Source: Seison nebaliae | Lineage: Eukaryota | DNA: 64,000 bases | Reading direction: 5' to 3' | Assembly: GCA_023231475.1 (NCBI GenBank) | Contig: JALJEE010002534.1 | Span: 1 to 64,000 of the forward strand | Shown: piece by piece, positions 1,813 to 58,119 of the stretch | Numbering within the stretch: the first letter of the stretch is position 1 | How the letters are laid out: each line of letters opens with the position of its first letter | The notes under the pieces: model-generated | The model's database searches: none | Told to the model about the DNA's origin: nothing | The model's input: the letters and a program-made list of their open reading frames with translations, nothing else | Position numbers and translations under genes: made by a program

Positions 1813-3173
1813 ATGGCCAATCGTTATCGAAGTGAGGATCGTTCATCATATGGCAGTTCGTCGAGAAGTTATTCACATTCGCCTCCTCGACGTCACGACA
1901 ATTCGGGTACTCGCGTGTACATTGGCGAGATTGGCGATCAGGTCTCCAAACGAGAATTGCGAGATCATTTCGAGAAGATCGCACCGGTTTATGATTTGTT
2001 CATAGCTCGATATCCCGGCTCGTTCGCTTTCGTCCAATACGAACATTCATCAGCAGCTCGTCGAGCAGTTCGTGAATTGAATTTGAAGTTTTTTTTTTTT
2101 TTTAAATTTTTTTTCAAATTTTAAAAAAAATTGAAATTCTTCGTAGACCGTTGGGACCATATCGACCGGTAGTGGAGATGGCGGTGAGTAAGAGGAACGC
2201 TCCACGACGAAAGAATCCACCATTTAATCCGAACGACAAATGTTTCCGTTGTGGTCAATTGGGCCATTATGCATACGACTGTCGAAAGCAGATGCATTCC
2301 GAGTTATTGTTTTATTCAAATCTTGCCTTATGGCAGTGTCGATGTGTGAGAAAGGAATGAGAGAGGATGTTGTGTTTCACGAAAAATTTATTTTGTTTAT
2401 TTATCTCAGTCTTCCTGAAAGAAATTACGTTTGCGATGATTCATGAATAACGACGAAATCGATTGAGTTTGAGATGTGTCAAGAGCTTCACCACCCATCA
2501 TTCTACACCACCACAATTATTCGCCTACCATTGACGGAGAGAATTAAATGAATTAACTTGACATCCATTCCCTTTGATAGATCAATGGAATTTTTCCTCC
2601 TTTCGTTCCATCGATCGTCTATACTTCTATCCAATATCACATCCGAATCGACAAAACGCGAACTATTTTCCCTCTTAAATAATTCTCCATTTTCCTCAAT
2701 TTTCAGTTTTCATTCACGTCGGACATCAAGAAGCTACTCGAGAAGTCCATCAAGAAGTCGCAGTCGAAGTTACGATCGTCATCGTTATATTCATCGTTCA
2801 TACAGTCGCTCTGTTTCTTCGCGATCAGTTTCATCAGATCGTAGAATTGGAACGACTTATCGATCAAGAGATCGATCGCCATCCTATTGTTCGAACGATA
2901 GTTACGATTCGAGAAATGGTCCGTCTCGTAACGGAGGACGATCCACATATACAAAACAACGAGATCGATATCGACGATCAAGATCAAAATCCGTTTCTTC
3001 CGATTATCGAGCGAACGAAAAATCGCGACGAGATAGTGGACGATCTCCGAGAAATTCGAAAGTTAATTTAAAAATTTATTTTTAAAAAATAATTTTAAAT
3101 TTATTTTCATTTTTAGTATGGTCGACGATCGTCGTCACGATCTTCCTACGAAGTTTCACCACCAAAACGATAA
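1813..3173 (+). CDS. SRSF7: Serine/arginine-rich splicing factor, SRSF7/SRSF3-like (RRM, CCHC zinc knuckle, RS domain); exons 1813-2087, 2147-2302, 2707-3061, 3117-3173
   Basis: RRM motifs (RVYIGEI, FAFVQYE), knuckle [14 protein letters not shown] and RS repeats; three GTT..AG introns join the frames. Confidence 0.85.
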
Positions 3174-3416
3174 GGAATGGGGAAAGGAATGAAGGAATTT
3201 TATTAGAGAAATATTGTTTGTTTTCCTAATGGATTCTCCTCGTCTTCCTCCTCCTCCTCTTTTTCTTCTTTTTACGAGTCAACAAAAAAAAACAATAAAA
3301 ACTCTTTTTCTTTTTGTCATTAATAAAGTTCAAGTTTATAAGAATTGAAAGAACAACAACAACATTTTCTCCTAATTCTTTTTCTTTTTTACCATAAATA
3401 AATTTTCTTCCTTCTC

Positions 3417-5949
3417 TTAATCCTCTTCGATTTCTCTCTTGTACGTCGTCCAGATTGTCTCCGGCGTCTTATGCGGTTTATGACTGGTGAGAAGGATTTC
3501 TTTTAACGAGTCGCTTTTCCGTTCGATCGGTCGTAGATAAGATCGAGGACATGTGAATTCTTCCTCTTTCCTCACCATCTTCTCACCGGAACTTTGTGCA
3601 CGCGGTTTCGCTTTCACTGGTTCCTCATTCCTCTTCATACACGTCTCATCGTCATAATTGGAAATATTGAAACATTTCGGTCTCGCTTTTATCGTCGTCT
3701 TCATGGGAATGGCACCTGGTTCATTCGAATTGAATAATTTCTCATATTGTTCATCGGAAGTCAAAGGCTGAAGAAATTGAAAATTATTAAAAAATATAAA
3801 AATTATTTTAAAATTATTTTAAAATTAATTTAATTTAACTCGTATTCGTTTTAGTGCACTTTTGGGACATGGTGCGACTCGTAACAATTCCTCGACTGAT
3901 TTTTTCGGAGTGGATTCGTGTCGTCGACAAGGTGTCGCTTTGTGAGGTACTAGTCGCGGTAAGGTCGTATTGGCCAATATGGATTGACGTGTCATATCCT
4001 TCAATTCGTCCAGACATTTCTTAGTCTCGTTAGGAGGGAAGAGATCGAGATAATCGTCTTTTCTATCACTGGTTAATCGAATGTAACTACGAGGACAATC
4101 GGCTTGTTTATTCATCAATGGTTCCTCCTCCACCGGAATTGGTATGATTTTCTTTTCTTTTCTCATTGAGTGCGGAGAAGTCCTTGGCAACGGATGTAAT
4201 TGATGATGCACTTGAATGGGATGAATGTGACGTGGTGGCGCTTTCGTCATTTCATATTCGACTCGTTTACGATAAGCTTTTTCCGCTTCTTCCATACACT
4301 CGAATTCTAATACTCGTTTACGATCCAACTAAGAGAACATTTTTTTAAATTTATATTATTTAATATTAAATTATTTATAATTAAATTAACATCATTTTCT
4401 CGTTCAATTTTGAATTTCATTTGTTCCTCCAGATCTTTTCGCGTTTGCATTTTCTTTCGACATAATTCATTTCTCTCCAAAATCTCTTGTTCTTTCAACA
4501 AATTAATTCGTTCCATTTCCAATTGTAAGAATTTCTCACTCTCTTCCTTCTCTTTCTCCTTCATTAAATCTACGAAAAAGAAATTTAAAAAATTATTCGA
4601 TCAATTGTTAACTTTTGTCTCGCATTTGCATTCGTCGTCCGCAGACAACATCTTCCATTAAGTCGTATCGCTTTTGCGCGTCCTTCTCATGAAGTTTCCG
4701 TTGCTTTTCCGTTTTCTTCTCAATCTCCTTCAACATCTCTTCATCAATTATCTGTTCGTCTTCCTCTTTCAATTTGTCCGCATAAGCTTTCCAAGCATTG
4801 AACCGTTGAGTTTCGTAGCGCATTTCCAATTTCCTCAATTTACTCTCCTCCGTTTCTCTACTGAATTTAGAGAGTGCATTGTCTAACACGTGAGCGTCGA
4901 GCGCATTATTTTTCGCTCGTGTCCTCTCGTTTATCTGTTTCTTCACGTCCATCTGATATTGGAGTTCATTCCGCCAATATTCCTGTTTCCTCAATTTTTC
5001 CTCGTACAATTTCGCTTTCTCCAATTCCGCTTTCGCCATCTCCTCTCGCACTTCCTTCCCCATCTCTTTCACCAACTCCACTTGACCCAATCGCTCTTCG
5101 TCCAATTGGACGACACGTTCTTTCAACTCTTTCGATGTCTCTTTTGCTGCCGTTCTCCGATTTTTTTCACTTTCAGCCTCTTTCAATCCCTTCACTTCAT
5201 AATCGTCCATGTACAATTGATGGAAGATTTTGTCTCGTTCTTTCTCCTCTTGTCGTTTCTCCACATTCTCCCTCATTTGCAATTCATGTTCTTCTCCCAA
5301 AAATTTCCGTCGTTCATTTATCTTATACTCTCGATATTCTCCACAATCACGTCTAAATTTAAATTATAAATAAATTAATATAATAAATAAATAAATTATA
5401 ATAATAATAATAATGAAAGATGTTCTAACAGAAACATTTGTTGCATTTTCTCAGCGATCCATTTCTCTTTATGTTGTTTTCGTGCCGATCTGATTTTCTC
5501 AACTTTCCTCTTCAATTCATCAATACGAGAAGTGGCCGCTGTCGGTTGTTGTTCCAGTTCGGCGAAGTATTCACGTCGCTCCTCCTCTAACAATCGTCGT
5601 AATTTCTCCCGTTTCATGTCGATACTCTTCGAATGACTATCCATCATCATGTCCACTTGAGAATAAAGATGAGTTTGATCTTTTCGCATTTGATTCATCT
5701 TGTCTTCCTGTTGAATACCCAGTAGATGGATATTGTCTTCCTTCAATCTTTGCTCATTCTTGCGTCGTTGTTCTTCATGTGCCGCCGCTGTACTCGCTAC
5801 GTGTTTGGTGGGGAGAGTCCGGAATTTCTGAACCTTTTATGTAAAATTTTTTTTGTAGTTTAATTTCAAAATTTTTAAAATTTAAATTTCTCAATAACTG
5901 TCCCACAAGCGGAGAATGATGTTTTATTCTTGTTCACCAACATGCTCAT
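3417..5949 (-). CDS. CFAP53: Cilia- and flagella-associated protein 53 (CCDC11)-like coiled-coil protein with an extra C-terminal region; introns 5834-5898, 5353-5429, 4570-4612, 4329-4390, 3768-3839
   Basis: KREKLRRLLEEERREYFAEL and WIAEKMQQMFLRDCGEYR resemble CFAP53; E/K/R-rich TPH-type coiled coil; five GTT introns keep the frame. Confidence 0.7.
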
Positions 5950-6208
5950 TCCGATCGTTTATTTCTACGAGTTTTCAACTTGATTTAGTAGATTCAAAAA
6001 TTTTTTCTTCTAATAATTTTTTATGTTGACAGTAGACGATTGTTTATATTTGCATGGAAACAATATGATCGAAATTAAACAAAAGCACAACTCTCTTCTC
6101 CGCCTCCTTTCGACGTGATTAATTCACAAACACTTTTTCCAATTCCTCAAATTCTTAGCCGAAACTCAAATAATAATCTGAGGTAAATTTATTTTAAAAA
6201 TCTAAAAT

Positions 6209-7483
6209 ATGATATCTCGATTCACTTCAAACATTTTCCGCACTTCCAAATTAGCGTTAGTGTCATTGAGTCGTTCCTCTCATGGTGCCGTATTCACCGT
6301 TATTATTCCATTTCAACGTTATTCATTTATCGTCCTTTCAGCATATTCCATCCACACACGACAACACAAAATTTGTGTTTTCACCTGAAAATCTAAATTT
6401 CGCTAACAGCGTCATCAAATGTTATCCCGATGGTTATGAGGCGGCAGCTGTCCTTCCTTTACTCGATTTGGCTCAACGTCAGAATGATGGATGGCTCTCC
6501 TTGCCAGCCATGCATTACGTTGCCAATCTGTTGAAAATGGAACGAATGAGAGTCTATGAAGTCGCCACATTTTACACCATGTTTAATCGACAACCTATCG
6601 GCAAATATCATATTCAACTTTGTACCACCACTCCATGCTGGTTGAGAGACAGCGATTCCATCATGGAAACTATTACAACGGAATTAGGTTCTCTTTTCTT
6701 CCTTAAATAATTCTTTCAAAAATATTTCTTTTTTATTTTATAAAATTTCCCAATTTTAATTTCCGTTCAATTTCCCAAAATTAATTTTTTTATTTTTCAT
6801 AAATTCTTTCAAACTTTCTTTTATTTTTCGTCAATTTTTCAAAATTTTTTTTTTAATTTTTCGTAAATTTTTCAAAATTTTTTTTTAATTTTTCGTAAAT
6901 TTTTCAAAATTTTTTTTTAAATTTTCGTAAATTTTTCAAAATTTTTTTTTAAATTTTCGTTTAATTTTTCTTCAATTTTTTTAATTTTCGCAAATTCTTC
7001 CAAAATATTTTCAAAACTTTTTTGAGAACTTCCTCCATAATCTTCGAAGAGTTGTGAATTTACTATTCTGGAACGAACTAATGATTTATTTTCGTTTTAG
7101 GAATATCAGTTGGAGAAACGACGAAGGATAATTTGTTCACTTTGAGTGAAGTTGAATGTCTGGGCGCGTGTGTAAATGCGCCCATGTTCGCCATCAACGA
7201 CGACTACTACGTTAAAATTATTAATTGTCAATTTTATTTTATTAGAAGTTGTGTAGGAAGATCTATCGCCGCAGGACGTGAAGGAAATCATCGAATCATT
7301 GAAATCGAACAAGAAACCGAAAATCGGTCCAAAGTTTTAAGATTTTGTTTTTAGAAGTGAGGGAGATGAACTAAAATGTTTATTTACAGGAATGGTCGTC
7401 TTTGTGCGGAACCGGTGAATGGTTTGACCAGTCTCACCTCTCCTCCAAAAGAGAAAGGATTTGGTATCCGCGCTGATTTATAA
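6209..7483 (+). CDS. NDUFV2: NADH dehydrogenase [ubiquinone] flavoprotein 2 (24 kDa subunit); introns 6299-6341, 6688-7100, 7211-7256, 7334-7389
   Basis: [31 protein letters not shown] and [12 protein letters not shown] (2Fe-2S ligands); N-terminal transit-like peptide. Confidence 0.97.
6820..6990. repeat. Intronic tandem repeat, about 28-bp unit (ttttcgtaaatttttcaaaattttttttta)
   Basis: Four to five imperfect copies inside NDUFV2 intron 2. Confidence 0.8.
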
Positions 7484-7531: not shown

Positions 7532-9367
7532 TCAAATGTAATTCAAATTTTCGTCGTTTTCGTCGTTGGAATCTTCGTCTTCTTCATCGTCATCGTCAGG
7601 ATTTTCCTCTTCCTCTTTCACTTCTTTCAGAGGATGAAGTGAGTGATTTGATTTGATGCGACTCCGATAATATTTGGTATGAGGATAATTTTTATTGTTA
7701 TTACATTTCGTCTCTTCGTTTGTTATCGGTTCTTTTTCCTTCACTTTCAATCGTGGTGCTTTCGCATAAACATTCTTAATTTTCGATGCTGGTGGTCGTT
7801 GTTCTTTCCGATAATTCGATTTTCTCTTATTCTTATCATTATCTTCATTTTTCTCATCGATCACTTCTGATATGATTTCCTCTTGAACAATTGTACCTTT
7901 CTCGATCATCCAACGACATTTCTCACAATCTCTCTCGATTTCTTTGCTATTACGATCGATCATCTTTCCCACCTCATAATCGCCAAGTGCTGATAAAGAA
8001 TGTAAATTTGAAATATTTGAATGACATGAAGGAACCTTCAGCAAATAATTCGAGTTTCATAAACGCTCCACCTCGTCGTAAATGACATTTGAGACGTTGA
8101 TTTTCATTCGATTTGACTTTCGGTTTTAACAATTCTAAAGACTAAAAAAAGAAGAAAAAATAAAGTGGAGACAGAAAAGGAAACTTTGCTACAATCTTCG
8201 ATACATTTCATTAAATTACCCACTCTATAATGACATAATGATCGATTGGAATAAATGGAATATTCGTTGGGAAATATGCGAATACAATGTCCATATAATC
8301 CGATCGCACTCTGATAATCTTCATTGTCAATAAAGAATCTTTTCATTAAATTTAAATTAATAATATAATAAATAAAAAAAATAGAACTTTGCTTTCGATT
8401 TCAACCAATTCAAATTCTTCTCATTCTCACTAAACTCGTCGTCATTAATGAGATCAGTTAACGCCTTCCTACCTTCCATTTGCGCCGCCAACCATTTATT
8501 CTCTTGATCGACATATGTGTCCCGTAACGGGGTTGGGAAAGGTCGACGAGTAAATTTGGTTTGAATTGATTGAAAATTTCTTACTGAAGTAATCTCGTCA
8601 ACCAAATCATTTTTCTTCTCTCGTTCTCCTTCTCGATTGGAATTTGAATTTTCCTTTTTAACATCACTCGTCATGGTTAGAGCTTGTTGATGGTTCAGTA
8701 TATTCGCTAATTCCTTTCCCAATCAAATGAAGTTTTAAGTTGAGAAATAAAAGAAAAACTTTTTCTCCTTTGGAGAAATGTTGAGCTAAATCAAAATTCT
8801 CACTATTCTCCTCCTCAATTATCACTTTGAACGATTTACCATTCTCCAAATTCTCCATAAATTTCCCTTTAATTTCCATCTTTTCATCTTCGATTCGTTG
8901 GCGATTAGTCGATTCAATTGTCATTTGTTGTTTTAATGTAAATTTCCGATTCTCTTCACGAATCGCCGAGATGTTCTCTAAATTATTTTTAGTTTCTTCC
9001 TCCAAAAATTGAAGGGCCTCCTCTTTCAGTCGTTTCTTGTTGAATGTGTTTGTCCGATGAAGATGTTTCCATTCCTCCGCCAAATTCTCTTTCATCAACT
9101 TCACAACGATTTGACCACGTTCCGGAATGGTGATGTTAGATTGTCGATGATCGATTGAAGATGATGGAAACAATTCATAAAGATATGTAGCTTGTGAGAT
9201 CTGAATTAAGAAGTAGATTAGTTGAAAAGAAGGACAATTTTATTTTTTCCAACTTTGAGATAGTTCGGTGTGAGAATGATGTCCAAGTTACCCGTTTGTG
9301 GGAAGTGGATAAATATCTCTAAGAATTCTCCATGGTCCACCCATCGATCTTCACCAATTATTATCAT
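7532..9367 (-). CDS. DNAAF4: Dynein axonemal assembly factor 4 (DYX1C1): CS domain, coiled coil, TPRs; introns 9201-9253, 8714-8759, 8339-8387, 8142-8184, 7990-8035
   Basis: FTRRPFPTPLRD, YSNRSLCH..CIEDCSK|SLELL and HLRRGGAF..LELFAE|ALGDYE match DYX1C1 motifs. Confidence 0.9.
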
Positions 9368-12483: not shown

Positions 12484-13604
12484 ATGGAAAATAAGAATGA
12501 GGAGGAAATGTCGAAAGCGTTTTATGAGAAAGTTCTCACGTTGCCCATCAGTGCATATGGATATCCTGTGGAGAAGTTTCGGGATCTGGTTGTCTTCCGT
12601 TCGTATATATAACATTAGATTTCTAGTTACTCATATTCTTCCAGCTAATATCGGGTACAAATGGGAAACGATACTGTCTGATATAGAGAACAAATGGATA
12701 CCTCGGGAAGAGGATGTTTGGGTTATCACATATCCCAAATGTGGACATACTTGGTCGTTTGATTTTCTTAGTATGTTAATTAGTGGCGAAACTAAACCGA
12801 AAGAGACAAGTAAAATCGCAAATTTCATTGAACTGCGACAAGAAAATTTTGACCGACTACACGAACAGAAAGGTCCACGATTAATAATGGTTCGCCTTTT
12901 TCTTTTTCAATTTATTTTTTTACATTATCAGACTCATATACTACCAAGTTGGATTCCAGATAAAATAAAAGAAACTAGTAAACTAATTTGTATTTTTCGA
13001 AATCCGTTCGATGTGGTCATCTCCTATTTTCATCATATATCCACTGTCAATTTGATATCGTTGGCACCGAAAAATTTCCATAATCAACTCCACAAGAAAT
13101 TCGCTAAGGAAATCGATTTAAAATTGTTCGTCGACGGTTTCTGCAACGGAAACATTCCAATTGGTCGATATGATCACTATATCAATCAATGTATGGAAAT
13201 GATTGAGAAATTCTCAGGTCATTATTTCACTTTTGAAGACATGAAAACGAATGGTGTAACAGAATTGGAGAGGATTGATAAATATCTTCAACTTAAAAAG
13301 TTCATTTTATATTTGAAATATTGTCAAACGGTTTCTTACTGTTAGTTCTAAGAAATTTTTGGAGAACGTCCAAAAAGCGACAAGTTTCGATTCGATAAAA
13401 GATTCGATTCGAAAGAGATTACAGGCCGACATGACCAACTTCACTAAGAGAGATGATGACGGTATTAAAGTTCTTTGTCGAAAAGGTCAAATTGGAAATG
13501 GTAAATTAGAATTGTCGATCGAACAACGTCAATTGATCAAAGAGACAGTACTGAAAGGAATTGCGAACGAACAATTGAAAAAGAAGTTTTCACAATACTA
13601 TTAG
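12484..13604 (+). CDS. Cytosolic sulfotransferase (SULT1-like), 3 introns
   Basis: PREEDVWVITYPKCGHTW (5'-PSB), PRLIM|THIL, RNPFDVVISYFH (3'-PB) and RKGQIGNGK. Confidence 0.9.
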
Positions 13605-14559: not shown

Positions 14560-16507
14560 TCAACCAATTTTTATTCGAACGTCAAGTATTGAACGATTGT
14601 GATAAATTAAATTTTCGTTGCAATATTTCTCAATTGGACGACTGGAATTGTGAGAATATTTAATATCCTCATTTTTCAAATCGATTCCGCCCAATTCGTT
14701 TTCCATTAACAAATTAAACTTTTCTTTACTGAGATGATCTCTCATCATTTCCAAACTGAAAAATGTGTTGTTTCGTTTGAGTTGTTTCGTCTTCGCTTGT
14801 AACATCGACAATTTTTTGTAACAATTGGAATTTGTTGAAGGAGTTCGAAGCAACTCTAAACTATTATTAACGAAAGGAAAAATGGAGTGGAAATTTGAAC
14901 ACGGTTTCGTTATCGGAAGAAAAAACATCTTCCTTTCATGTCGGTTTTTAGGACTGAAACATGTGGAGAATATGTCAATAATCTGTTGACTACTTTTACA
15001 CATAACCAAAGCGAGAACCGGATCATTGGGTGTAGGTAGCCACAACGGCCCAAATGGTCGATGAACTATCGGATGTAAAATGTTCTTGTGGAACCGTCCA
15101 GGATTACCAGCCGAATGTGAACATTCGCCTTCGAAGTTCACCAAATAATAATCGGGATTTAAGTCATCCGGATAACCGATCCACAAATCGATGGTGGGAT
15201 ATGAGAAATAATTTTTGATAAAGAAACCTCTCATGTATTTTAGAGATAGAACCGGCTCCAAAATTGAAGGTTTGAATGAGATTTTCAATTGTGTGTAAAG
15301 ATAAATGAAATTTTTTGTGGTTCTTTGGGGATATTTGATGTGTAGAAATCCGTCGTCTAATAAACGTTTCTCTTCTTCGAGGAACGTGCGTTTCGTTGTG
15401 TTGTCCAGCAACGCCCCAATTTCTGACCATTTATCATATAACCATGGTGTTGTTTCGTAGTAGGAACTAATTTGATTTCCACTGAAACGTACTTTTCTAC
15501 CTGAATTCCAAATTCGAATTTAATATTAACAGAATTATTTAAATTAATATTAAGTATTTAATTAAATATTTTTAATATTATAAATTAATAAAAATATTAA
15601 ATTAAATATTATTATATTAATTATTATATATATAATAATTTACGCTTTACCCTATGGGGATTCCGCGTCTTAATAAAAAAAAAACATAATATATTATATA
15701 ATAATATTAATTAATATTTTTAAGATGATAAATTAATTACATTTAACCTGGTTGTACGTCGATCATACCCAATTGCATTAATTCGATGAGAGCTGCCACC
15801 AGATGATAGGGTCGATCATTAATTACCATTATATCGACATCATCGTCCCAGGGAATCATGTCATGATGTCGAAGTGAACCGATCAAAGTACCTTGATATA
15901 AGACATGTGTCAAACCATATTTCGTCAGAACTGATGATAACGCTTGCGTGAGAGAGATATAGAGATTGTAGTGTATCGGTAACATTCCATGATCCAGAAA
16001 CATGGCGTTCTTCTCGTCTTCAGGTAGACTGTTTATATCAAATTTCATTTGGAATTTAATCTTTTTGAAAACGGCATTAGAAAGTGTATCGTCCCTATCG
16101 TAACGGCCATATTTCCAACCTCTTTCATCGCTGTACTCATAATGAATTAAGGGATAAGATGTATAACCATGTTGTTCGAATGTGTTGTACGATACGACGG
16201 CTTCTTTCCTCCCATAACAATGTGAATAGACCTTCGATAAATATTTATTAAGAGCAACTGCTCTCTCAGTCACCGATACGATTGACGAGAAATCCACTCC
16301 TCTCCGAATCGGATCTCCCAACAACCTTCTCAATCTGAATTGATTGACCGTATTCTCCAGAGGCAACAAACCAGACACCAGGTCCAAATTCGTCACATAG
16401 AGACACGATTCTCCAATTCCAGACGATGCACTTCTCTGATATCGGAGGAAAACGACAAGCACAATAAATAGTCCAATCAAGCAACAATAGAATCTGTTCG
16501 TTTTCAT
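14560..16507 (-). CDS. LicD/fukutin-related (FKRP-like) phosphotransferase, type II membrane protein; one intron 15501-15747
   Basis: N-terminal TM anchor, GTLIGSLRHHDMIPWDDDVDI LicD motif, YPTIDLW and RPFGPLWLPTPNDP. Confidence 0.85.
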
Positions 16508-19390: not shown

Positions 19391-22300
19391 TTAGGTGGCA
19401 TAATCTGATAAATGAGTGGCATGATTCTTTAGATAATTCAATGTTTGTTTCGTCATTTCTTCAGTTAAGCCTTTTGTCTTCATCAATTCTTTCATTTTCG
19501 ATATGTAATTGGGGGAAATCTTTTAAACAAAAATCATAATCGATTTCGATGGAATCAATATTCAAACTTGCAAATCATCATCGATGAGATTTCGAACATA
19601 GTTTTCTGCCGATGTCTCTTCTTCGATTTCTGATTTCATAATATTTCTAATCGTTAATCTCAATTGATCGAATCTAAAATTTTGAATTTATTTCAATTTG
19701 ATAACATGAAAAAATTAACCGATCGTAATAGAAGACGGTGGCCCAAGGTTCTGTGAAGAATTGGAAGAAATCGTCGATTAGACCGTCGTTAAATCTCGTA
19801 GCTAAATTATTCAACAATCTCACATGAAGCCCATACAATTTGATATATGATTGCCATTTGATCGGCTAAAAAGAAAATTCGTAAGAAATTTTAAAATTTG
19901 TTTGAAAAAATAAAAAAAAACTTTATTAGAGACACAGATGATTTGTTTGATCTTGTTAAATCGTGAGCAGATAATGGAAAAATATTCGCCATTCTTATTC
20001 GTCAAATAAGTTCTGTCGTTGGAATTCTTTGCACGATTCCTCTCCAAATGCCACGCCGCCGGTCTCATACTGAACACATAACGACTGTCGCAAATGAGAG
20101 TTTGATAGTAGACGGGTTGTTTATAATCCGGCAATAATTTCTCTTTCGATTTATCGTCTTCATAACTAGTAAGATTAGGATCGAATAAACGTAACATACA
20201 ATTCGCAATCTAAAAGGAGAAAGTTAAAAGAAATGGAATGGGAAAAAAAGAGAGAGAGAAGTCAACATGTTCTCCCACTTCCACGGGATTGTATGAAGCG
20301 TGTGTATTATAATTGTCGTGATATGTCCGACCATATTTCGTCAACGGTCCAGCAGCTCTTATCGACGGATCATTTGTATGAAATTCTGAATCGATAACTA
20401 AACGACCGTCATAAACTAAAGCGGCTTCATTGACAGCTCGAAATAAATGATAATCTGGCATCATCTTACTAAACGAGATAATGGCCTCAACATCGAACTG
20501 ATGAATATTGGGCAATTCGCCCACATTAATCGTTCCCGCTTCAGCCGTATCATTTTGACCATAAACCTTCACCGTTCGTATGGTATCGCCATCACGCCAA
20601 TATCCACCATTCCATTCATAGAACATGAATTGACCGAGTACTTTCACTCCATGTTTTTCTAAATAATCGAAAATCTCATTCTCGACCATCTCACACGGAA
20701 AATGTTGTTGTTCGAAAATTTCGTTAAACGGTAAATTTGTATTAATTTTCGGAATGACCCAAACGATCTGTTTTCCTGGTATGCCCATATCGATGAGACA
20801 TTGAATACAACTCACAACATCCAAATTATAACCGAATCCATAAATGAGGAAAATTTTCGTGAATGATGACGATTCCTGAGTCTCATCATCAATGACGGAC
20901 ATTGTTCGTTGTTGAATGAAATAAATGAGAGATTCGATCGCTTTCATATCATTTAAACAGAAATAATTTGAAATTTTCTGTCGATACGTACTTCGAGGAA
21001 GACGATCCAAAGCCAATGTTGACGGATAATCAACTTCGTATTGAATTCCTGTACCAAGAATTAGATGATCATATGGAACGATCGATTTGTCATTAACGAT
21101 GACTTGTTTCCGTTTTCTATCGATAATCGTCACTATTCCCTCAATCACATTAATCGCGCTAGCTAATGACATTCGCTCCATCATCCGATCCGTCAAATAT
21201 CGACGACTACCCAAAATTTTGTGGACGATGGAATCGGTCGATATTTCAATACCGTTTCGACTGATCAATATCAAATTGTTGAAACGAAGATGAGCAGTGA
21301 AAACTAATTTACGAATTAATGTCAGAATCGTATCAGACGCTCCCACACAAACGATACGGATGTTGATGACGAGTTTTCGTTCTAAGAGTAATTTTTTATT
21401 CAAATGAAAAACGGTAAAATTCTCATGAAGTAATTCGTCTCGATCGATCTTCTCTGTCGTGACACTGGGCACTTCGTGAATTCTTTCGTGCAACGCCACC
21501 ATCGATGGTAGACAATTGACCATTTTGATGGCGAACAATGATTGTTGGGAGATTTGTGGTTTAAATTTGGTGTGTGGAACGAATTGCATTTCTGAAATTT
21601 CAGTCTCATTTTCCGTTATTGGTTGAGTGTCGATATAAACCGATTTGTTATTCGTTCTTCGATTCACACACAAATAGAGACAGGAGATATTTGACATTTG
21701 CATCATTTGTTGGAGGAACATTTTACTCATATTATTCAATGATGGTGCTATGATAAAATAGAGAATGATGGCATGTTCCGCCGCCCGATCATAAGTCTCA
21801 TAATAAATGAAATCATCTAAATTGTAATTGGAACGAATGAATTCCAATTGTTCCACATCACCAGTTCGTAATAGACAAATGCCGATGACGTACGAACCGA
21901 GATAGAAAGCGTAAGCGTGTAACTTAAAACCTGCATGCTGGTGAAATGTCAAATAATGTTTTAAGTCGTATTCGACGGCTTCCCAATTGTGCAATTCGCG
22001 TCTAACGAAAGCTGAAATATTCTCCATGTCATCATACGTGATTTGAGCACAACGGAAATTCTCGTACATGAGAGAGAGACGATGGAAAACGTACAATTCT
22101 TGATCTAAAATCTGATTTGGTAATGGAGTAGTTCGAATGAAATTCCTGATTAACGGAAATTCGGGCACTGTATGTGGAATCGAAATAATCGCATAATCAT
22201 AATCTTCATATTTTTCGAAAATCGCTCCGAGAAAATCAACGGAACGATGTTCGTATTTCTCGTCGATCACAAACATATTGATCACGACACCATTCACTCC

Positions 22301-23615: not shown

Positions 23616-24093
23616 TTATTTAGCTTTCTGTGTTTTCATTTGCATTTCAGAGAATTCCTTTTGAATAGTCGTGATATTTTCATCAATCTCCTTCTTTTTC
23701 GACAGTTCGTCTTCGAGTAAACTTTCTACTCTTTTTCTACAACATTTCATCATTAGATGAGGAAATTATTAATAAAAAAAAATAACATTTCCCCATTAAT
23801 ATATCGGAGACGAGTTTCAATTATATCTACCGCTTCTTTAAGTTCATGTTTAAACATGACTGGACCAGTCATTTTATAGACGATGTCCTTATCGTCACAC
23901 AATTTCAATTCCTTCAACAAAAATTGATAAGGAAATAATTTTTGGACATGAATTAAACTTCCAAAACAGCATCATTCTCAATCGCCTGACCCTCCAACTG
24001 TTGTTGTTTCTCACTGAAATTTTGAATTTTCTTCAACAATTCCTTTCGTTTCGCCATCTCATCTTCCATGCGCTTAAGATAATTCGACTCCAT
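23616..24093 (-). CDS. PFDN6: Prefoldin subunit 6 (missing from the ORF track); introns 23912-23958, 23737-23786
   Basis: Spliced translation QQLEGQAIENDAVLE|ELKLCDDKDIVYKMTGPVMFKHELKEAVDIIETRLRYINGEI|KRVE. Confidence 0.88.
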
Positions 24094-26728: not shown

Positions 26729-27410
26729 TTAGAAAGACAAATTCACTTGATATTTTATAGAGTGCTTCGCCGCCGTTACCGTTGTAGTATCATTTTCTGA
26801 TAATAATTTTCCCATTCTGTCGTATCGAAACACAAAATTTTCATAATTATCAATTAATTCTCTAACTTTATCCATATTTAATCTGAAATCGAGAAAAACG
26901 TTTTGACATCGTTTGATGAAGCTGAAAATGAAAATGAATTTCTTCTCACACAAATCCTCCACTAACATATGATGTGAAATGATGTGATAATGAATTTTGA
27001 AAAAAACGATAGACATTATCAGCGTAACGGAAACGATAATAAAGATTGGATCATCTTTAATCTGGCAATCGACTATGTTTTATTGATTTTTCGCAAAATT
27101 TTCAAACTTTTCTTTCTCTCGATGTTAACTGACCGAAAAGACGATAAATGAACACCAGGAATATAGTCAATAAGAAAACTAGAGAATTCAATTGAACGAG
27201 TTGAAATGAAGGAAAAATTTAACTTAAACATTTCGTCGAATGTCGACGAGAATTGTCCAATATTTCCGTTAACCGACGTTGAAATAAACGTAAATCTGAG
27301 AATGGCAAGAATATAATGGAAATTGATGGAGGAAACGAACCGGTAGCTATATGGTTGCCACAATCAGAGATTCGGTGATTTCCTCCATTCACCGACGACG
27401 TAGTTGTCAT
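26729..27410 (-). CDS. CNEP1R1: CTD nuclear envelope phosphatase 1 regulatory subunit (TMEM188/Spo7)-like, 4 GTT introns
   Basis: Spliced product has DLRLFQRRLTEIL, two TM segments, KIH and FRYDRMGKLL, resembling DLKAFERRLTE..GIH..CDDTGKL. Confidence 0.65.
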
Positions 27411-30002: not shown

Positions 30003-31869
30003 ATGAGTAATGACGCCTTCCTAGATGATATCACTCATAGAACAACAATTAAAATAGACAATGAAGAGATCGAAGTATCTCCCGAAAACTTAGAGAGAGT
30101 TCGCATTCTAGGAAATGGACAGAATGGAGCTGTTTGTACATTTTTCACAATCCGACCATTTATGACCTCCTTTAGGTTTTACTCATGAGACACACACCTA
30201 GTAATAAATTGATGGCTGTCAAACGTATCACATTCAACAATGACAACACTGAACAACATGGAAGAGAATTGAAAGTTTTCCTCTTTTGATTGATAATTGA
30301 AACTACATCTCTCCATTCCCTTCTCTTATTGTGTAATAGTTGAGTTTAAATACACAGAACTGCTTTTATCTTATACGTTCATACGGCGCCCTCTATCATG
30401 AATTTGTTGCTTGGATTCTCATGGAAGTTATGCAAGCAGATCTCCAAGTGATATATGAAAAAGCAAAAAAAATGAATATTCGTTTGTCCGAGTCATTCCT
30501 TCGACGAATTGCATTTATTGTTAGTATAAATTCATCTCCTTCTCTTCTCTTCTCCCCATTTCGTACTACCATTTCATTTCGAAACAATCTTTTTTTAAAC
30601 CATTTTTTCCCACAATATTTAAACAAAGTCACTTCGTTTTTCTTTCTATGAATGAAATTTAATTATCCACATTATGAATTTAAAGTATTTCTTTTTCTTC
30701 GTATTAACATGGAAATCGGTATAGAATATGTAAATACTAATACTCATTTTCTCGTCGTAGTAAAAGAAAAAAGTAATTTCCGTCCAGTTTTCCATGATTT
30801 ATGAAATAATTTTTAAAAAAATTTTAAAAAATTTCTTCACAATAATTTTCGATGATTAACATTCATAAAATGGATTGAAAGATACCACAACAATGAAATT
30901 ATTTTCAAAGAAAATTTTCGTCTAGTTTTTGATGATTATGAAATAATTTTCCAAAAAAATTTCGGAATAATTTTCAGTGATCATGAAATATATTTGTGAA
31001 ATGATTTTGTGAAATAATTTTTGATAATTAAATTTTTGTTAAAACGAAATCTACTTTAATGAAATTCAATTTCTCTCTCAATTCAAATTTAATTTTAATG
31101 GAATTGATTAAAAGATTTTTTTAATGAAAATTTAATTGTCAAAAATTATTTTGGAAAAGATTTCACGTCAATAAATTGTCGTGTCTTTATCATTCTTGGT
31201 TTGAAGGTGTTGAAAACACTAAATTATTTGGACCAAGTCTGGGGCACCCTTCACCGCGATATCAAACCGTCCAACATCCTAGTTAATCAAGATGGCACTG
31301 TCAAATTGTGTGACTTCGGCATTTGTGGTCGGTTGGGACAGAGATCGAATGCTCACACCTTTATCGGTCACAGTCGGTATATGGCTCCTGAACGAATTAT
31401 AATGAAAGAGAAACAACATTCTTATAATATCCGAAGTGAAGTGTGGTCATTAGGTTTTTTTTTGAAATTTTCCTTCTTTTCCCCACTCTCCCACATTTTT
31501 TCAGGGTTGACTTTATATGAGTTGGCTACACGTCAATTGCCGTATTGCAAAGCGAGAGGTGATTTTGGATTAGCGACAGCGATCGTAGATGGACCGCCAC
31601 CCAGTCTGGAAGAAGATGAAGAGACACTCAATTATTATTCAGACGATTTCAATAAATTCATTAAGAAATGTCTGGTGAAGGACGAAGAGGATCGAGATAA
31701 ACCAGAAACACTTCTATTAAAAGACGAATGGATCAAAGGCGAATATGAAATATATTTAAAATCGGTCAATTTAACCGTCGAGACGGAGAATCCGTTGGAT
31801 TGTCATCCATATGAATGTTCTGTTCAATCTGATCGCGACATGTTAAAAAGGATAATCGATAGCACATGA
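30003..31869 (+). CDS. Dual-specificity MAP kinase kinase (MKK3/4/6-like); introns 30132-30175, 30275-30339, 30520-31206, 31454-31504
   Basis: LGNGQNGA|V, MAVKRI, HRDIKPSNIL, KLCDFG, SNAHT activation loop, YMAPERI. Confidence 0.9.
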
Positions 31870-31993: not shown

Positions 31994-32591
31994 TTAGTAT
32001 TCGTAAAGAATATCTCGTCTCTCTGAGATGTCATGATCGAGAGCTGAGGCAACTGACGTCATAATTTGTGACCATTTCCATGCATCATCGACTTCCGCAA
32101 ATAAATCCATTTCACTTGTTAATTCCTGAGTGAGAGGACTCAAATTGACGTTCGTCTAAAAATAGATCATTAGAAATTTTTCGAATTTCTCTAACTATAT
32201 AATTGAATTGTTGCATCGATGGTGAATCCTTCAAATCATTCGTCGTCACTTTCATTCCCATACTGTAAAAAAAAATTTTATAAATTCAAACAAATTATTA
32301 TTATTATTAATAATAATTGAATTAATTATAATATTTATTATTATTAATATGATTATTATTATGAACTTGGTTTGTGAAGTGTTGATGATTCTCGATCTCT
32401 TCTCCGTTAATTCCGGTATATTTTGAAACGACGCTTGTTTCACCATCTTCCTAAACTAAATTAATTTCAAATGTAATTTCCATATTGAACTTTGTATCAC
32501 GATTGTTCGTCTCGTCGCTGGGGCGAGCTTCGAAGACCTTTTCTGAAGGAATTTTATTTGTCGATTTTTTCTTCTTTTTCGAATCGCCCAT
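31994..32591 (-). CDS. IFT43: Intraflagellar transport protein 43 (largely missing from the ORF track), 3 GTT introns
   Basis: Spliced C-terminus NIPEL..KVTTNDL..VNLSPLTQEL..EVDDAWKWSQIMTSVAS fits the IFT43 motif IDLxxLTxxL..EDDxxWxWxxL. Confidence 0.7.
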
Positions 32592-45500: not shown

Positions 45501-45538
45501 AATATTTTTCGGCCACTGAGAAAGTTTGGAGAGTTGAC

Positions 45539-47221
45539 ATGAAGGAGTCATCTCCTCCCAACAAGATCGTTCGCTTATACAACAACATTCACTTCCATTA
45601 CGACAATGTTAAATTAAATAATAATAACAACATCAATAATAATGGTGGTAGTAGTGGTGGTGGTGGCGGAGCGAGTAATAGTAATTTCTCTTTAAACATT
45701 CAATCGACTCATCTGTTGGAGATCAATCATTTCACCCCGAAACAAATCGCTTGGATTTATAAACAATCGTCATATCCCTCATCGTTCGATCGGTCGAATG
45801 ATGAGATTATTGGCAGTATTGACGTTCCCATCGAAATGAATGGGAATGATAAGAAGAAGTGGATGATCCATCGGAAATTCCCTCAAGATTTCCATCATTT
45901 CGATCATTGGCTACATTGTTGTTGTTTCAATCGCTCCTTCACTCAACTGCCCACTATTCACTATGTGAATGTCTCTCAATTCCTCTTCGTACAAAACGAG
46001 GAACAAAGACGAATTCCCCTTAATTGTCAAACGAATAATTATGCGCAATTGTCGAGTGCACTTAAGCTGATTTGTGTGCACTTCATTCACCAATATCTCA
46101 AACGACTCAATGACGTCATTCTCAAAACGAATTATTCGAACCAAATTAATTGTTCATTTGTCTTGAATTGGTGCGAGATCGACAATCACGGACGACGACT
46201 CGTCGATCTGCCAACGAAGAAACATATCAAAATTCAAGAGAACAAAGACTCAACTTGTCAGACATCCATCAACTTCAGTTATGGTCAGAACGACTTAACA
46301 GACGATAGTGGGGAGAATGATTACGAAGTGAACGATGATGATGACGACAACCAATTAATGTCCACCTCCGCCATCAACATTCCTGCAATAGCGACTGGTC
46401 GTTGCATAAAGAAATATGAGGCACTCAATTCCGACGAATTGTCGTTAAATGTCAACGATCTCGTCTCCATCATCGACACGTCGTATGAGACGAAAGAGAA
46501 TTATAATCTTCCCACTAATCACACTCATTGGTATCGGGGGAAGAAGTTGAATGATTTATCTGTCGGTTTCTTCCCTCACAATTGCATCGAATTGATCAAT
46601 GCGAAAAATTTGCTCTCACTCAAATTCCTCCAGACATTGAAAGATGATGGTCGTTTGAAAAAGAGAAAGAATGAAATTGGTGATCAATCTCGATCAAGAG
46701 CCTCCATCGACATCATCCATCCAATGGATACTAATCGGATTGTTCTTCCTTCCACGTCCATCGGTTATCATAATTTATCTAGATCTTCTCTCTCGTCTTC
46801 TTCCTCATCGTCCGTCTCCGGATTAACAAGGAATAATTGCAATATAATTGCAACCAATACTAACAATCGATCAATGATCACCTCAATCATTCATGACACA
46901 AAATCCACATCAACATCTAACACACCGTTAACAACGATAACCACCACGAATATTCAAACGTCATCCTCCTCCTCAAATTCCTCTACTATCACTACCACCA
47001 CCACCACATCAGGAAAATCGGCAGTAACAAATTATTGTTATACTCCGAAAAAGTATTTGAGAAATCGAAAGAAACTAAATCAGAATTCATCCATCTTTCA
47101 ACGTCTCAGAAACTTCTTGTTATATCGACCAAATCGAAATGTTCTCCGTTCTAACGGAATTTTCAAGGAACGTCTTTTCGGTTGTGACTTATGTGAATAT
47201 ATCGTCAACAATAACAGCAGA

Positions 47222-47261
<40 letters not shown>

Positions 47262-50470: not shown

Positions 50471-53461
50471 ATGAGATTTTTCCACCGATTGGCCGTCGTA
50501 CATCAACCGTCGAAAATAGAAAGTAAATGGATCGATCGATGGAGGAAAGCGAAATTGTTCAATTCGCCGAACAAGTTCAATGGCAGTCAAGTTCTCCTTT
50601 TTCCGCCTCCCAATGTCACTGGACGTTTACATTTGGGTCATTGTCTGACGGCGACGATTGAAGATTCGATAATTCGACAGTTTCCATTCCCCTCTTTCAA
50701 TTTCACTTCCTTCCTTGCAGTCAACGGATGAAAAAAGGAAAAATGGAACATTTCGTTGCAGGATACGATCATGCAGGAATCGCTACTCAAGTGATGGTGG
50801 AGAAGGATGTGATGACGAAAATGAAATTAACTAAAGATGAATTGGGAGAGGAAACTTTTCGCTCCCAATTGGACAAATGGAAAACGCAGAAGATTTCCGA
50901 AATCTCTTCCCAATTAGATAAATTTGCAACGAGTGTTTGTGAGAAGGACAAAAGATATTATACGATGGATCATCACCATTCGGTGATTGTGAGGAATGCT
51001 TTCGTTCGATTATGGAATTCAAACCATATATATCGTCAAAAGAAAATGATCAACTGGTGTTCCACATTGCGCTCAGTCATCAGTGACAGTGAAGTTAAGA
51101 TTTCTCTGAAAAAAAAATTGCACAAAAAATGTTGATATTTTTCTGCACAAAAATTGCACAAAAAATGTTGATATTTTTCTGCATAAAAATTGTTCATATT
51201 TTTCTGCACAAAAATTGCACAAAAATTGTTGATATTTTTCTGCACAAAAATTGCACGAAAAATGTTGATATTTTTCTGCAGAAAAATTGCACAAACAATA
51301 TTGATATTTTTCTGCACAAAGATTACATAAAAAATAATAAAGTTTTTGTGCATAAAAATGGGAAAAAAATTTGAAAGTTTTTCTCCAAAAAAATGTTGAA
51401 ATAAAATATAAAATTTTTTGTTTAGATCGATAATGTGGAATTGAAAGGGAAAACTCAAATAAATGTACCGGGTTATCGTCGACCGATCGATTTCGGTCAA
51501 ATGTATTATATCAATTATCGATTAGTCGGTTTCCAATTGTCTTTTCATCCAATTCTCAGTTTTACCATTTTCGCATCTGATTAATAGATGGAAATGGTGT
51601 GGAGATACCGGTAGCGACAACACGACCAGAAACCATTTTAGGAGATGTTGCATTAACCGTGCATCCGAAGGGTAAATATGCAAAATTTATCGGGCAGTTC
51701 GTCAGTCATCCCTTACGGGACGAATACCATCTGCCGATATTGGCGAATGAGAATGTAGACATAGAGATTGGAAGTGGAGTCTGTAAAATAACTCCTGGTC
51801 ATGACAAGAGTGATTACGAGTATTATTTGAAGGAGAAGAGTCTGACTGAGATTATCGAGATTTTAGATAATGAAGGAAATGTGACGTTGGATGATGAGAA
51901 TCGTTTCCAAATCCGTCAGAAGAAACGTTACGATGTTCGCGATGAAATAATCGATCGATTAACGATATCATGTAAATTGACACGAATCGAATCACATTCG
52001 ATGATTCTTCCGATTTGTAGTCGATCGAAGGACGTAATTGAACCGAGATTGACATATCAATATTTCCTGCGATGTGGTGATGTTAAATGGAAATTGTTAG
52101 AGGAATTGGAACATCTTCGTATTGAACCTGATTATTCGAAGAGGTTAATGAGAAATTGGTTAGAGAAAATGAATGATTGGTGTATCTCACGACAGTTGTG
52201 GTGGGGACATCGAATTCCGATAATTCGATTAGAATTTGAAAATAAAATCAAATTTATTTGTGAAGCGAATGAATTGGAGACAAATCGAATTATCGACGAA
52301 ATGAAACGAGAACATCCGCATATGAAAATTATAAAAGAGAACGATGTTTTAGATACCTGGTTTTCGAGTGCATTAATTCCGTTGGCTATTCAAAATTGGT
52401 CACTTCCTCAACAATCACGACCGTTACAGACATTACCATTATTGGAAAGTGGTTATGATATCATTTTCTTTTGGGCCATTCGAATGATGGTTCTCTCACA
52501 ATTATTGGAGAATCATCGTCCTTTTCATCATTATTTATTCCACGGATTGATCTGTGACGAGAATGGCGAGAAAATGAGTAAATCGAAAGGAAATGTCATC
52601 GATCCGATAAAGTTGATGGAAAAGGGTGGAAAGAATAATATCGGAATCGATACCATCCGATTGGCACTTGCTTCCATTCAATACAAATCGCAAATTTGTA
52701 AATTCCATTTATCGATAATTGATCAATCGAAATTATTCTTGAATAAATTGTGGAATAGTTTCAATTTCGTTCGAATTATCTCCGAGAAAAATTCTGATCC
52801 GATTCGGCAATTCGATGAAATCAAATCCGATTCCTTTCATATCTCTCCCGTCGATTTTTGGATGTTGGGAGAATTGAATGAATTAATCGAAACCGTTGAA
52901 CAGGATTGGAATCATCATTCACTCCCCTCCATCGTCAATTCCATACGAAGTTTTCATATCAAAATTTTTTGTGACATTTATCTCTCATATATTCGAGATC
53001 GTTTAAATCGATCTACGAATGTCGACGAATCGAAATTCATCATTTCCATCCTTCATCATATCATCACCATCATCGTCCGATTACTTCATCCGATAGTTCC
53101 ATGTATGACGGAAGAAATCCATGAACAATTGGGAAATGAGAATTTTCTCATACTCTCATCATATCCCACTCCATTCTCGTTGGAACATGAAACTTTCAAT
53201 TTCCATCAACTACGACGAGAAATGACTGATATTGTTCATCAATTGTCGTCCCTTCGTCTCCAACTACAGAAGAAACAGATCAAAATGAAGAGTATTCAAG
53301 AGATTGAACTCAATTCACGTCAATTCCAATCGAGACGGTTTATGAAAAACGAAATTCTTCAAATTTTTCTTTCTTCTCAATTCGGATCGAAATTTCATTT
53401 CAATCTCATTGACGACTCATTTCAAAATCCAAACATAATTTTAAATATTAAATTAAAATAA
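50471..53461 (+). CDS. VARS2: Valyl-tRNA synthetase, probably mitochondrial; introns 50680-50720, 51094-51425, 51529-51587
   Basis: PPPNVTGRLHLGH (HIGH), DHAGIATQ, ATTRPET, WCISRQLWWGHRIP, KMSKS; short transit-like N-terminus. Confidence 0.88.
51100..51355. repeat. Intronic minisatellite, about 33-bp unit (aaaaattgcacaaaaaatgttgatatttttctgcac)
   Basis: About six to seven imperfect tandem copies in ValRS intron 2. Confidence 0.9.
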
Positions 53462-56716: not shown

Positions 56717-57482
56717 TTTTTTTTTAGTTTCCGTCTTTCCGATTCTAAATTAAAGTAAAATTCAAAAAATAGTCAAATGAAAAAAATAGAAAGACAAAAA
56801 AACTTTATTTAAAACTTTTCATAATTCTCGAAATTAAAATATAATGAATTTGAATAAATGAATTTCGCTCAATTTATATCAATGAACGTACAAACTTGAC
56901 TTGTATTAAGCGCGTCGTTCTAATCCATTTGACATGACGTGTCCATTTGTCGTAAATTCTTAAAGGAAACATGAAAAGGATGACGTGTTAACATGACGTG
57001 TGTGAATTTAATTGGAGAATATCGAATATAAAATTTTTGAAATTCGTACAAAATGAAAAAAATACCGTACAAGATCATCTATTGACGTGTAATAGAGATG
57101 GAAGAAATTTCAATCCAGAAATTTCTGAAATTAATTTTTTTTTAAATTTTCAGAATATTTTTCGATTTTTTTCTATCGATTTTTTCTTCCATCTTCTCGT
57201 TGGAACAATTGTGAAATGATTCCAAAAGAAATTTTCAATCAACTATTCTAACGAACAATATTGTTGTTTATTTTTGTTCCGCATCTTATCCGATCGAACA
57301 ACAAATATCAAATTGAGAAGACAAAAAAATTGGATGGACGTGATTTGAAAAGGTGAAAGCGGGCAGCAAATCATCAATTAATTCCCCAAAATTGCAGAAC
57401 AAGTAGTTGATGGAGTGAAATGGAACGTTTCAATCGTTCGATAACTTTAATTGTGATTGAATGTACCGCATGAAATTTGACC

Positions 57483-57490
57483 TATAAAAA
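57483..57490 (+). promoter_or_regulatory. Candidate TATA box
   Basis: TATAAAAA about 90 nt upstream of the ATG at 57575. Confidence 0.4.
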
Positions 57491-57574
57491 TGAAGAGAAT
57501 TTTTTTAGAATTTATCAATTCAATTTTCCTATCAATCTCTCAATTTAACACCAATTCAAATCATTTACAAAAAT

Positions 57575-58119
57575 ATGAACACTTTAAAGTTTTTAATTAT
57601 TCTCTTCTGCATCTGTGTCTCCCAATATGAGGGTTAGAAATTTGAATTTCATTTTTTAATTCTCATACATTTTCAGCATTCTTCTGGGGAGGACGAGGAC
57701 GAGGAGGCGCTGGCGCCGGAGCAAAAGCCAATGCAGCTGCCAAAGTCGATGCTCAAGCAGCAGCCAAAGCTCAAGCAGCAGCCAAAGCACAAGTAGCAGG
57801 ACAGGCACAAGCTAAAGGATCAGCTGGGGCTGGAGTCGGTGGTAAAGTTGGTGGAGGGTTCTCATTGGGAGGAGGAATCGGTTTGAATCCGTTCTCCGGT
57901 TTAACTGCTGGTGTCACCGGTTCAGGAAACGCATACGCTCAAGGAAATGCTCATGCAAATGCACAACTTAGTGGATCAGCAGCCGCCCAAGGAACTGCAG
58001 CCGCTCAAGGAAGTGCACAAGCTGTCGGTAGCGGTTCAGCACAAGGAAACGCCGGTGCTAGTGCTGGTGCTCACGGATATGGTCAAGGACAAGGCTTCGG
58101 AGGTTTCGGTCGACGATAA
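57575..58119 (+). CDS. Secreted Gly/Ala/Gln-rich low-complexity structural protein; intron 57633-57676
   Basis: Signal peptide MNTLKFLIILFCICVSQYEA, then FFWGGRGRGG, AQAAAK and AAAQG repeats, ending GQGFGGFGRR. Confidence 0.75.

Follow-up and report, generated by a model that had tools for sequence, protein, structure and literature searches.

The 5′ splice sites of major-class metazoan introns follow the consensus AG|GTRAGT, and the usual purine at the third intron position (+3) reflects a uridine at position 6 of the U1 small nuclear RNA (snRNA) that accepts either A or G. The described systems closest to the donors considered here are those of Entamoeba, whose introns carry GUUUGU(U) donors with which its U1 snRNA has co-evolved (Roy and Bowser, bioRxiv 10.1101/2022.06.08.495308), and the U5- and U6-class 5′ splice sites, with an exon motif AG, a variable base at +4, links to METTL16 and SNRNP27K, and unchanged snRNAs (Parker et al. 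2022, PMC9803359; 2023, PMC10581693). Here we analyse a stretch of 64,000 nt (the window: contig JALJEE010002534.1 of assembly GCA_023231475.1, positions 1 to 64,000 of the forward strand) from the marine Seison nebaliae, an ectosymbiont within the Rotifera–Acanthocephala clade (PMC8351084). Every intron modelled in this window begins GTT, behind exon ends that are rich in A.

The window has a GC content of 34%, zero N and no match to an Rfam family at threshold, and its introns were modelled from the DNA, reading frames and protein homology alone. A protein search with an NDUFV2 exon returned a top match labelled Seison nebaliae, well clear of the rest, the runner-up being 64% identical; matches to the exons of valyl-tRNA synthetase (ValRS) and MAP2K also bore that label, and the CFAP61 search found a deposited protein identical across the query. 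Introns were sorted into three tiers. Tier A comprises 15 introns in four genes (NDUFV2, CFAP61, MAP2K and ValRS) whose spliced models reproduce deposited proteins letter for letter (P0001, P0361, P0241 and P0121, respectively); tier B comprises 23 introns in eight genes with a restored frame and, for seven of these genes, Pfam or PDB family support of varying strength; tier C holds the three introns of a single gene without a homologue. Most donor statistics use the 38 introns of tiers A and B, all from one contig. The multi-exon genes at about 33007–34188 (−) and 41719–42522 (+), neither with a Pfam match, were excluded from the counts because several parses fit each, GTT-only parses being possible and non-unique. 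A per-strand gene parser with no preference at +3 recovered many of the modelled introns on coding strands; its output was left uncounted, since spurious calls were numerous on shadow strands and at places where genes adjoin. Pfam searches of the 26 leftover open reading frames (ORFs) in the window revealed no additional conserved multi-exon gene.

All 41 models have GT...AG ends and restore the frame, 15 of them matching deposited proteins. An earlier note, made from the letters of this DNA, had listed about 42 introns, spread over 13 genes of either strand, that all begin GTT, with none starting GTA or GTG. Our models give nearly the same tally (41 introns, 13 genes, both strands, GTT at 41/41), the GTT hexamer that it quoted begins at each of its ten example positions, and T occupies +3 in every one of the 38 donors of tiers A and B, with GTC, GTA and GTG each at 0/38.

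Two scorers that took no account of the donor motif were used to examine the choice of GTT. In the tier A introns, profiles built from non-Seison homologues only ranked every frame-keeping donor lying ≤24 nt away, whatever its dinucleotide. The GTT site came first among all dinucleotides in 12 of the 15 introns, a non-GT position being ahead by 0.1, 0.1 and 3.2 bits in the other three, and it was the best GT or GC donor in 15/15. Where a frame-compatible non-GTT rival of the GT or GC type existed, GTT was preferred throughout (9/9); GTA or GTG rivals, found in four introns, lost by 4.0, 11.1, 19.7 and 34.7 bits. The second scorer, trained on the composition of intron-free ORFs and intergenic DNA, picked a GTT donor in 36/41 introns (three times a GTT other than the modelled one), a non-GTT rival being available in 32/41. 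T follows GT at 2155 of 5786 sites window-wide and at 43 of 96 inside introns, which sets the chance at ~0.45 per intron and the probability of an all-GTT set at ~6e-6 for 15/15 and ~6e-14 for 38/38. Furthermore, a second-sample contig (run X5) equals positions 19350–19831 without difference and covers the CFAP61 donors 19719 and 19567, so a base-calling error at these two donors is unlikely. Over 19350–24150, contigs of runs X1, X2, X3 and X5 show no spliced joint; their coverage is patchy and X5 is probably DNA, which makes this result neutral as to splicing.

These results bear directly on the possibility of a modelling or assembly artefact, or of a pattern that is weaker genome-wide, GTT having been picked in T-rich DNA and the true donors being more mixed. 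The deposited proteins are themselves predictions from the same DNA, which fits such an artefact and counts against a genuine all-GTT set, as do the five of 41 introns at which the composition scorer chose a non-GTT donor, often by narrow margins (2303, 19921, 30520, 27107 and 26966), and the 95% upper bound on non-GTT donors that a single contig allows, namely 8% from 38 introns or 18% from 15. Against the artefact stand the unanimous preference of the non-Seison profiles in the nine contested introns, their contradiction of two of the five scorer misses (19921 and 30520), and the two donors that are identical in the second sample. We therefore regard an artefact as improbable, and the GTT start as a feature that is very probably real at the level of the sequence.

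Beyond GTT the intron side is loose, in agreement with what the earlier note had said of +4 to +6: the 38 introns have A 16, T 12, C 8 and G 2 at +4, A 13, T 12, G 9 and C 4 at +5, and T 17, A 12, C 8 and G 1 at +6. Its further statement that +5G is missing fails, with G at that position in 9/38, and the last exon bases, which it had described as varying freely, are in fact rich in A. Compared with phase-matched coding DNA, A is found at −1 in 21/38 (11.9 expected), at −2 in 24/38 (12.7 expected) and at −3 in 20/38 (12.1 expected), and AAA occupies −3 to −1 in 11/38 (1.7 expected); −1G is at background (8/38 against 7.4 expected), the usual −1G being gone. The excess of −1A and of −2A also appears relative to exonic non-donor GTT sites (P ~1e-4 each). 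T at +8 is enriched as well (25/38 donors versus 99/240 GTT decoys, P = 0.008), A at +4 is borderline (16/38 versus 64/240, P = 0.056), and −2A is less common with +5G (2/9 versus 22/29, P = 0.006, a post hoc comparison). Of the minimal GUU donor that the note had proposed, the invariant +3T and loose +4 to +6 remain and a clear A-rich exon signal has to be added; as judged from the modelled introns, (A)AA|GTT is a better description of the donor than a bare GUU.

In other respects the introns are of a familiar kind. Most (31/38) measure 40–72 nt and five exceed 200 nt, a T-rich tract precedes the AG (T at −5 and at −6 in 27/38 each), acceptors are TAG in 19, CAG in 14 and AAG in 5, and no branch-point consensus stood out in the 38 introns. 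Minor (U12-type) donors have a long fixed motif with A at +3; here +3 is T throughout and +4 to +8 vary, and this class was rejected.

An outgroup control was taken from a scan with the NDUFV2 of Adineta vaga as query (80 loci), in which two loci, L005 (88% identical to the query) and L001 (82%), were treated as bdelloid-like. All six of their frame-restoring introns start G|GTR (five GTA, one GTG), so that GTR donors number 6/6 against 0/38 in Seison (P = 1.4e-7), a small control of two loci with monogononts and acanthocephalans outside the sample. An extra candidate intron of L005, upstream of the chosen start codon, also begins GTA and was excluded from the six. Adjoining the bdelloid-like NDUFV2, L005:78–1900 (−) holds a 548-codon, secreted-looking frame with four canonical introns.

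The age of at least one Seison intron can be read from its position. In human NDUFV2 a donor lies at c.120, and its +5 to +8 read GTAA (PMC8961761, PMC10454233); an alignment with the 249-residue mammalian chain puts codon 40|41 of the latter opposite Seison 30|31, where intron 6299 is located. This intron, at the least, is therefore old, and its donor was altered in place. The three remaining NDUFV2 introns and the pair in the prefoldin gene we likewise take to lie at human positions. With an invariant +3T, canonical donors in the bdelloid-like loci and one intron ancestral in position, the note's central claim of rewired donors holds at the sequence level.

The ancestral position also bears on a different origin, in which the introns would stem from the recent spread of a single family of mobile elements starting GTT and the spliceosome would be ordinary. 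The introns are indeed short and alike in length, and the single NDUFV2 intron of the bdelloid-like loci is missing from Seison, both as such insertions would have it. Opposed to this are the c.120 position of NDUFV2 intron 1, the fact that the 20 best intron-to-intron matches listed share low-complexity A/T stretches only, and the 23/38 junctions that have no flanking direct repeat. We consider insertion of one family very unlikely, and introner-type repeated introns were rejected on these same three observations.

How such donors might be recognised is a more evenly balanced question, and the explanation that we put forward, the chances for and against which we judge about equal, is a U-to-A change at U1 position 6 aided by U5 pairing. 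The U1 5′ end pairs with −3 to +6 (PMC9311317) and its position 5 lies opposite +4 (PMC10581693), which places position 6 opposite +3. Were the (pseudo)uridine at base 6 replaced by adenosine, +3 would pair with U only, and since adenosine at this position has no wobble partner, both the invariance of +3 and the absence of GTC would follow. The exon-end As would pair with the uridines of U5 loop 1 and would offset the weak pairing that remains with U1 and U6; AAA at −3 to −1 fits U5 U40–U42 in the prevailing cryo-EM register (PMC8283771), and the anticorrelation of −2A with +5G resembles the U5/U6 trade-off described in PMC9803359. A second U1 change, C to U at base 9, is possible because −1G is replaced by −1A. 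The introns themselves would be ordinary major-class introns with donors converted in place, short and T-rich, and would be defined across the intron. Among the causes that the note had named (altered U1 or U6, U1-C, LUC7, PRP8, SNRNP27K/METTL16), SNRNP27K and METTL16 act on +4 (PMC10581693) and for that reason fit a change at +3 poorly.

Pairing beyond the GTT core lends this explanation some support. In the normal register the U1 5′ end forms 3.36 pairs there, against 2.37 at other GTT sites of the same genes (P = 2e-7), together with the enriched +8T and the borderline +4A given above. Entamoeba provides a precedent, its GUUUGU donors having a U1 altered to suit them (bioRxiv 10.1101/2022.06.08.495308). 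The site at 2184, a perfect canonical donor that appears to go unused within its coding exon, also counts in favour of the U1 change: this GTGAGT lies upstream of a zinc knuckle, and joining it to the next acceptor would lose the knuckle and shift the frame to a stop.

Several observations weigh against the U1 change. The better U1 fit is partly compositional, as each donor marks the passage from coding DNA into a T-rich intron and the decoys are mostly exonic, and the predicted U1 duplex is weak even with the assumed change, averaging −1.85 kcal/mol with canonical U1 (decoys −1.08) and −2.59 kcal/mol with A at position 6 (decoys −2.03). No snRNA gene, U1 included, was found in the 64-kb window at Rfam gathering or E-value thresholds; the single sub-threshold RNA match was to sR5 (E 0.02), and a U1-like pattern matched 13 times against 21 expected. 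In yeasts, Giardia, Thecamonas and Micromonas, as in most lineages of this sort, donors shifted and U1 did not change. Enrichment of +5G is not clear-cut, 9/38 being above intron composition (P = 0.003) and not clearly above the 31/240 of non-coding non-donor GTT sites (P = 0.09), and exonic decoys show a weaker −2A/+5G trend of the same sign (10/50 versus 55/163, P = 0.08). Finally, synonymous codon shuffles gave no specific avoidance of GTT-type sites in coding DNA (GTT 544 versus 569 shuffled, z −1.8; AAAGTT 18 versus 19.9). In the same 34,371 nt of coding sequence GTRAGT occurs six times, 2184 among them, versus 8.6 in shuffles, and stronger depletion affects GTA (222 versus 330) and AGGTR (19 versus 33), probably owing to TpA avoidance.

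The lineages with canonical U1 point to a different division of labour, in which U1 pairing would be unchanged, reduced or lost, +3U would be set later or by protein (U6 G44, Prp8, U1-C/LUC7), and U5 loop 1 would hold the exon AAA. U6 G44 contacts +3 (PMC9803359), and Roy and Bowser raised the possibility of improved pairing between GUUUGU and the U6 box (bioRxiv 10.1101/2022.06.08.495308). A donor read with little or no U1 would suit the finding that −1G and +5G, the positions most strongly enforced by U1 besides GU, are at or near background. The red alga Cyanidioschyzon has lost U1. What speaks against this alternative is the composition of the donor: a U6 G should take C no less readily than U, whereas GTC stands at 0/38, and a site led by U6 should retain +4U, +5G and +6U, all of which are loose in Seison. 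We hold this alternative to be a possible but doubtful account. Rotifers also perform spliced-leader trans-splicing, which is independent of U1 (PMC11347140).

A one-base shift or bulge in the pairing of a canonical U1 is another possibility, the donors then really being GU-U-RAGU. Such registers exist (reviewed in PMC9311317), and the shifted-register score of the donors is just above that of decoys (5.1 versus 4.6, P = 0.015). The register predicts +6G and +7T, however, whereas +6G occurs in 1/38, GT at +6/+7 in 0/38 and GTTRAG in 1/38; the near-absence of +6G largely refutes it, and we consider it highly improbable. Returning to a change in the spliceosome itself, we lean slightly towards a broader proposition, namely that each ancestral intron in turn was converted to AAA|GUU, with U1 pairing rewritten or abandoned and GTRAGT rendered invisible to the spliceosome, so that the whole major 5′ splice site of an animal would have been recoded.

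The gene models behind these counts are collected in Table 1.

Table 1 Modelled introns and one canonical donor-like site in the window (exon bases before the bar, intron bases after it; for minus-strand genes donors are followed by acceptors; ranks are from the homologue profiles)
Feature	Positions	Strand	Introns or donors	Tier and support
SRSF7/3-like gene (RRM + zinc knuckle)	2088..3116	+	2088-2146 (GAA|GTTTTT), 2303-2706 (CGA|GTTATT), 3062-3116 (AAA|GTTAAT)	B; open 280-aa frame; RRM_1 then zf-CCHC matched on consecutive exons (Pfam); composition scorer favoured a GTG donor at 2303
Canonical G|GTGAGT site, apparently unused	2184..2189	+		Within coding exon 2 of the SRSF7/3-like gene
CFAP53-like gene	3768..5898	-	5898 (ACA|GTTATT), 5429 (TCT|GTTAGA), 4612 (AAA|GTTAAC), 4390 (GAT|GTTAAT), 3839 (CGA|GTTAAA); acceptors 5828, 5353, 4570, 4329, 3768	B; open 735-aa frame; PDB CFAP53 chains match exon 2 up to its end, no PDB match for the long exon; alternative GTT at 5435 for donor 5429
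NDUFV2	6299..7389	+	6299-6341 (ACC|GTTATT), 6688-7100 (TAG|GTTCTC), 7211-7256 (TAC|GTTAAA), 7334-7389 (AAA|GTTTTA)	A; model = P0001; GTT first of all dinucleotides 4/4
TPR-containing gene	7990..9253	-	9253 (AAA|GTTGGA), 8759 (AAA|GTTTTT), 8387 (AAA|GTTCTA), 8184 (AAA|GTTTCC), 8035 (AAG|GTTCCT); acceptors 9201, 8714, 8339, 8142, 7990	B; open 532-aa frame; weak TPR matches (Pfam); +3-neutral parser recovers 5/5 introns
Sulfotransferase	12599..13345	+	12599-12644 (TCC|GTTCGT), 12890-12931 (ATG|GTTCGC), 13300-13345 (AAA|GTTCAT)	B; open 328-aa frame; Pfam profile 2-73 and 75-182 meet across the 12890 junction
LicD-family gene	15501..15747	-	One intron, donor 15747 (CAG|GTTAAA)	B; open 566-aa frame; LicD match
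CFAP61	19520..20266	-	20266 (CAT|GTTGAC), 19921 (AAA|GTTTTT), 19719 (TCG|GTTAAT), 19567 (CAA|GTTTGA); acceptors 20210, 19866, 19674, 19520	A; model = P0361; GTT top-ranked 4/4
Prefoldin-6-like gene	23737..23958	-	23958 (GAA|GTTTAA), 23786 (AAT|GTTATT); acceptors 23912, 23737	B; open 126-aa frame; exon 2 matches residues 46-86 of a solved prefoldin 6 over its full length
Small gene without Pfam match	26922..27223	-	27223, 27107, 26966, all modelled GTT	C, uncertain; open 181-aa frame; composition scorer favoured GTC and GTG at 2/3 donors
MAP2K4/7-like kinase	30132..31504	+	30132-30175 (GCT|GTTTGT), 30275-30339 (AAA|GTTTTC), 30520-31206 (ATT|GTTAGT), 31454-31504 (TAG|GTTTTT)	A; model = P0241; GTT ahead of all dinucleotides 3/4, best GT/GC 4/4
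IFT43-like gene	32156..32490	-	32490 (AAA|GTTCAA), 32366 (CAA|GTTCAT), 32195 (ATA|GTTAGA); acceptors 32451, 32263, 32156	B; open 137-aa frame; weak IFT43 match on final exon
Valyl-tRNA synthetase	50680..51587	+	50680-50720 (ACA|GTTTCC), 51094-51425 (GAA|GTTAAG), 51529-51587 (TCG|GTTTCC)	A; model = P0121; best GT/GC 3/3, first of all dinucleotides 1/3, other two within 0.1 bit
Secreted Ala/Gly-rich protein	57633..57676	+	One intron (AGG|GTTAGA) following a signal-peptide-like exon	B; open 166-aa frame

Some of these introns stand out in their own right. At 404 nt, intron 2303–2706, behind the zinc knuckle of the SRSF7/3-like gene, far exceeds the usual 40–70 nt and has internal AGs behind pyrimidine tracts; vertebrate SRSF3 and SRSF7 have a poison exon in this region, and the Seison intron may be alternatively spliced. 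The long introns of NDUFV2 (6754–7011) and ValRS (51113–51418) are swollen by A/T-rich tandem repeats of ~32 and 25–36 nt, respectively. Long genes or exons without introns are also frequent (24487–25518, 27771–29423, 35055–37880, 38191–40452, 45500–50023, 59007–61184 and 20267–23488), the intron-free set including a DnaJ protein, Ku70, a two-pore-channel-like protein, DPY19, a RhoGAP, a glycosyltransferase and the first 1074 codons of CFAP61; a LIN52-family gene at 40844–41398 (−) is likewise intron-free. The genome looks intron-poor, like other lineages with transformed donors.

Elsewhere in the window, an open frame at 1–966 (+) with an RVT_1 match (E 9e-15) represents the 3′ portion of a LINE-like element that the edge of the window truncates, and 57575–58119 (+) encodes a secreted-looking, possibly structural Ala/Gly/Gln-rich repeat protein. 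Over the CFAP61 coding exon (20330–23324), runs X1, X2, X3 and X5 yield low-depth contigs that are ~82–90% alike, with differences mostly three bases apart; these look as if a second, diverged lineage were present, and among the listed pieces none spans a donor.

The +3 purine is among the most stable of animal splice signals, and Seison has apparently switched all its introns to +3U. The species offers a natural experiment on which reader of +3 matters (U1, U6 or a protein) and on how a reader and its thousands of sites can evolve in step. A matching U1 change is known from an amoeba that has few introns and a rigid motif; in an animal with close canonical relatives the order of events should be traceable. 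Seison genes will also mislead splice predictors whose training relied on standard animals. In the accessible text of the species' genome paper and two supplements, mentions of "splic" or "intron" are few and none concerns donor sequence; the available portion of a lamin paper mentions Seison alternative splicing and nothing more on splicing (PMC10125929), and a pan-eukaryotic minor-intron survey has Seison in its supplementary species list and not in the main text consulted (PMC10639083). A literature search that covered subscription journals thinly found no description of GTT donors in Seison or any other animal, and the switch is apparently the first of its type in an animal.

Compared with known systems, the Seison donor keeps much of the canonical metazoan arrangement represented by the bdelloid-like loci (GT–AG ends, short introns, a T-rich 3′ end and an NDUFV2 intron position common with human) and parts from it at +3, where the purine of their G|GTR donors is found in 0/38. 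With shifted-register U1 pairing it has the GUU start in common and lacks the required +6G and +7U (Roca and Krainer 2009, as cited in PMC9311317). It resembles the U5- and U6-class sites in that a weak intron side is offset by exon bases able to pair with U5 loop 1, with a hint of the +5G anticorrelation, and differs in having exon AAA without −1G and in the changed base being +3. The likeness to Entamoeba lies in GT–AG introns with a near-universal +3U in place of the purine. There, however, a strict long motif (97–98% GUUUGN) accompanies few introns and a matching U1 has been found (Roy and Bowser), whereas in Seison, an animal, only +3 is fixed, +4 to +6 are loose and the exon ends in AAA. 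The Entamoeba-type motif is accordingly rare (+4T 12/38, +5G 9/38, +6T 17/38), the full GUUUGU occurring once, at 30132. On the evidence of these donor sequences, the Seison system works like the Entamoeba case yet is no member of it, its motif being a different one.

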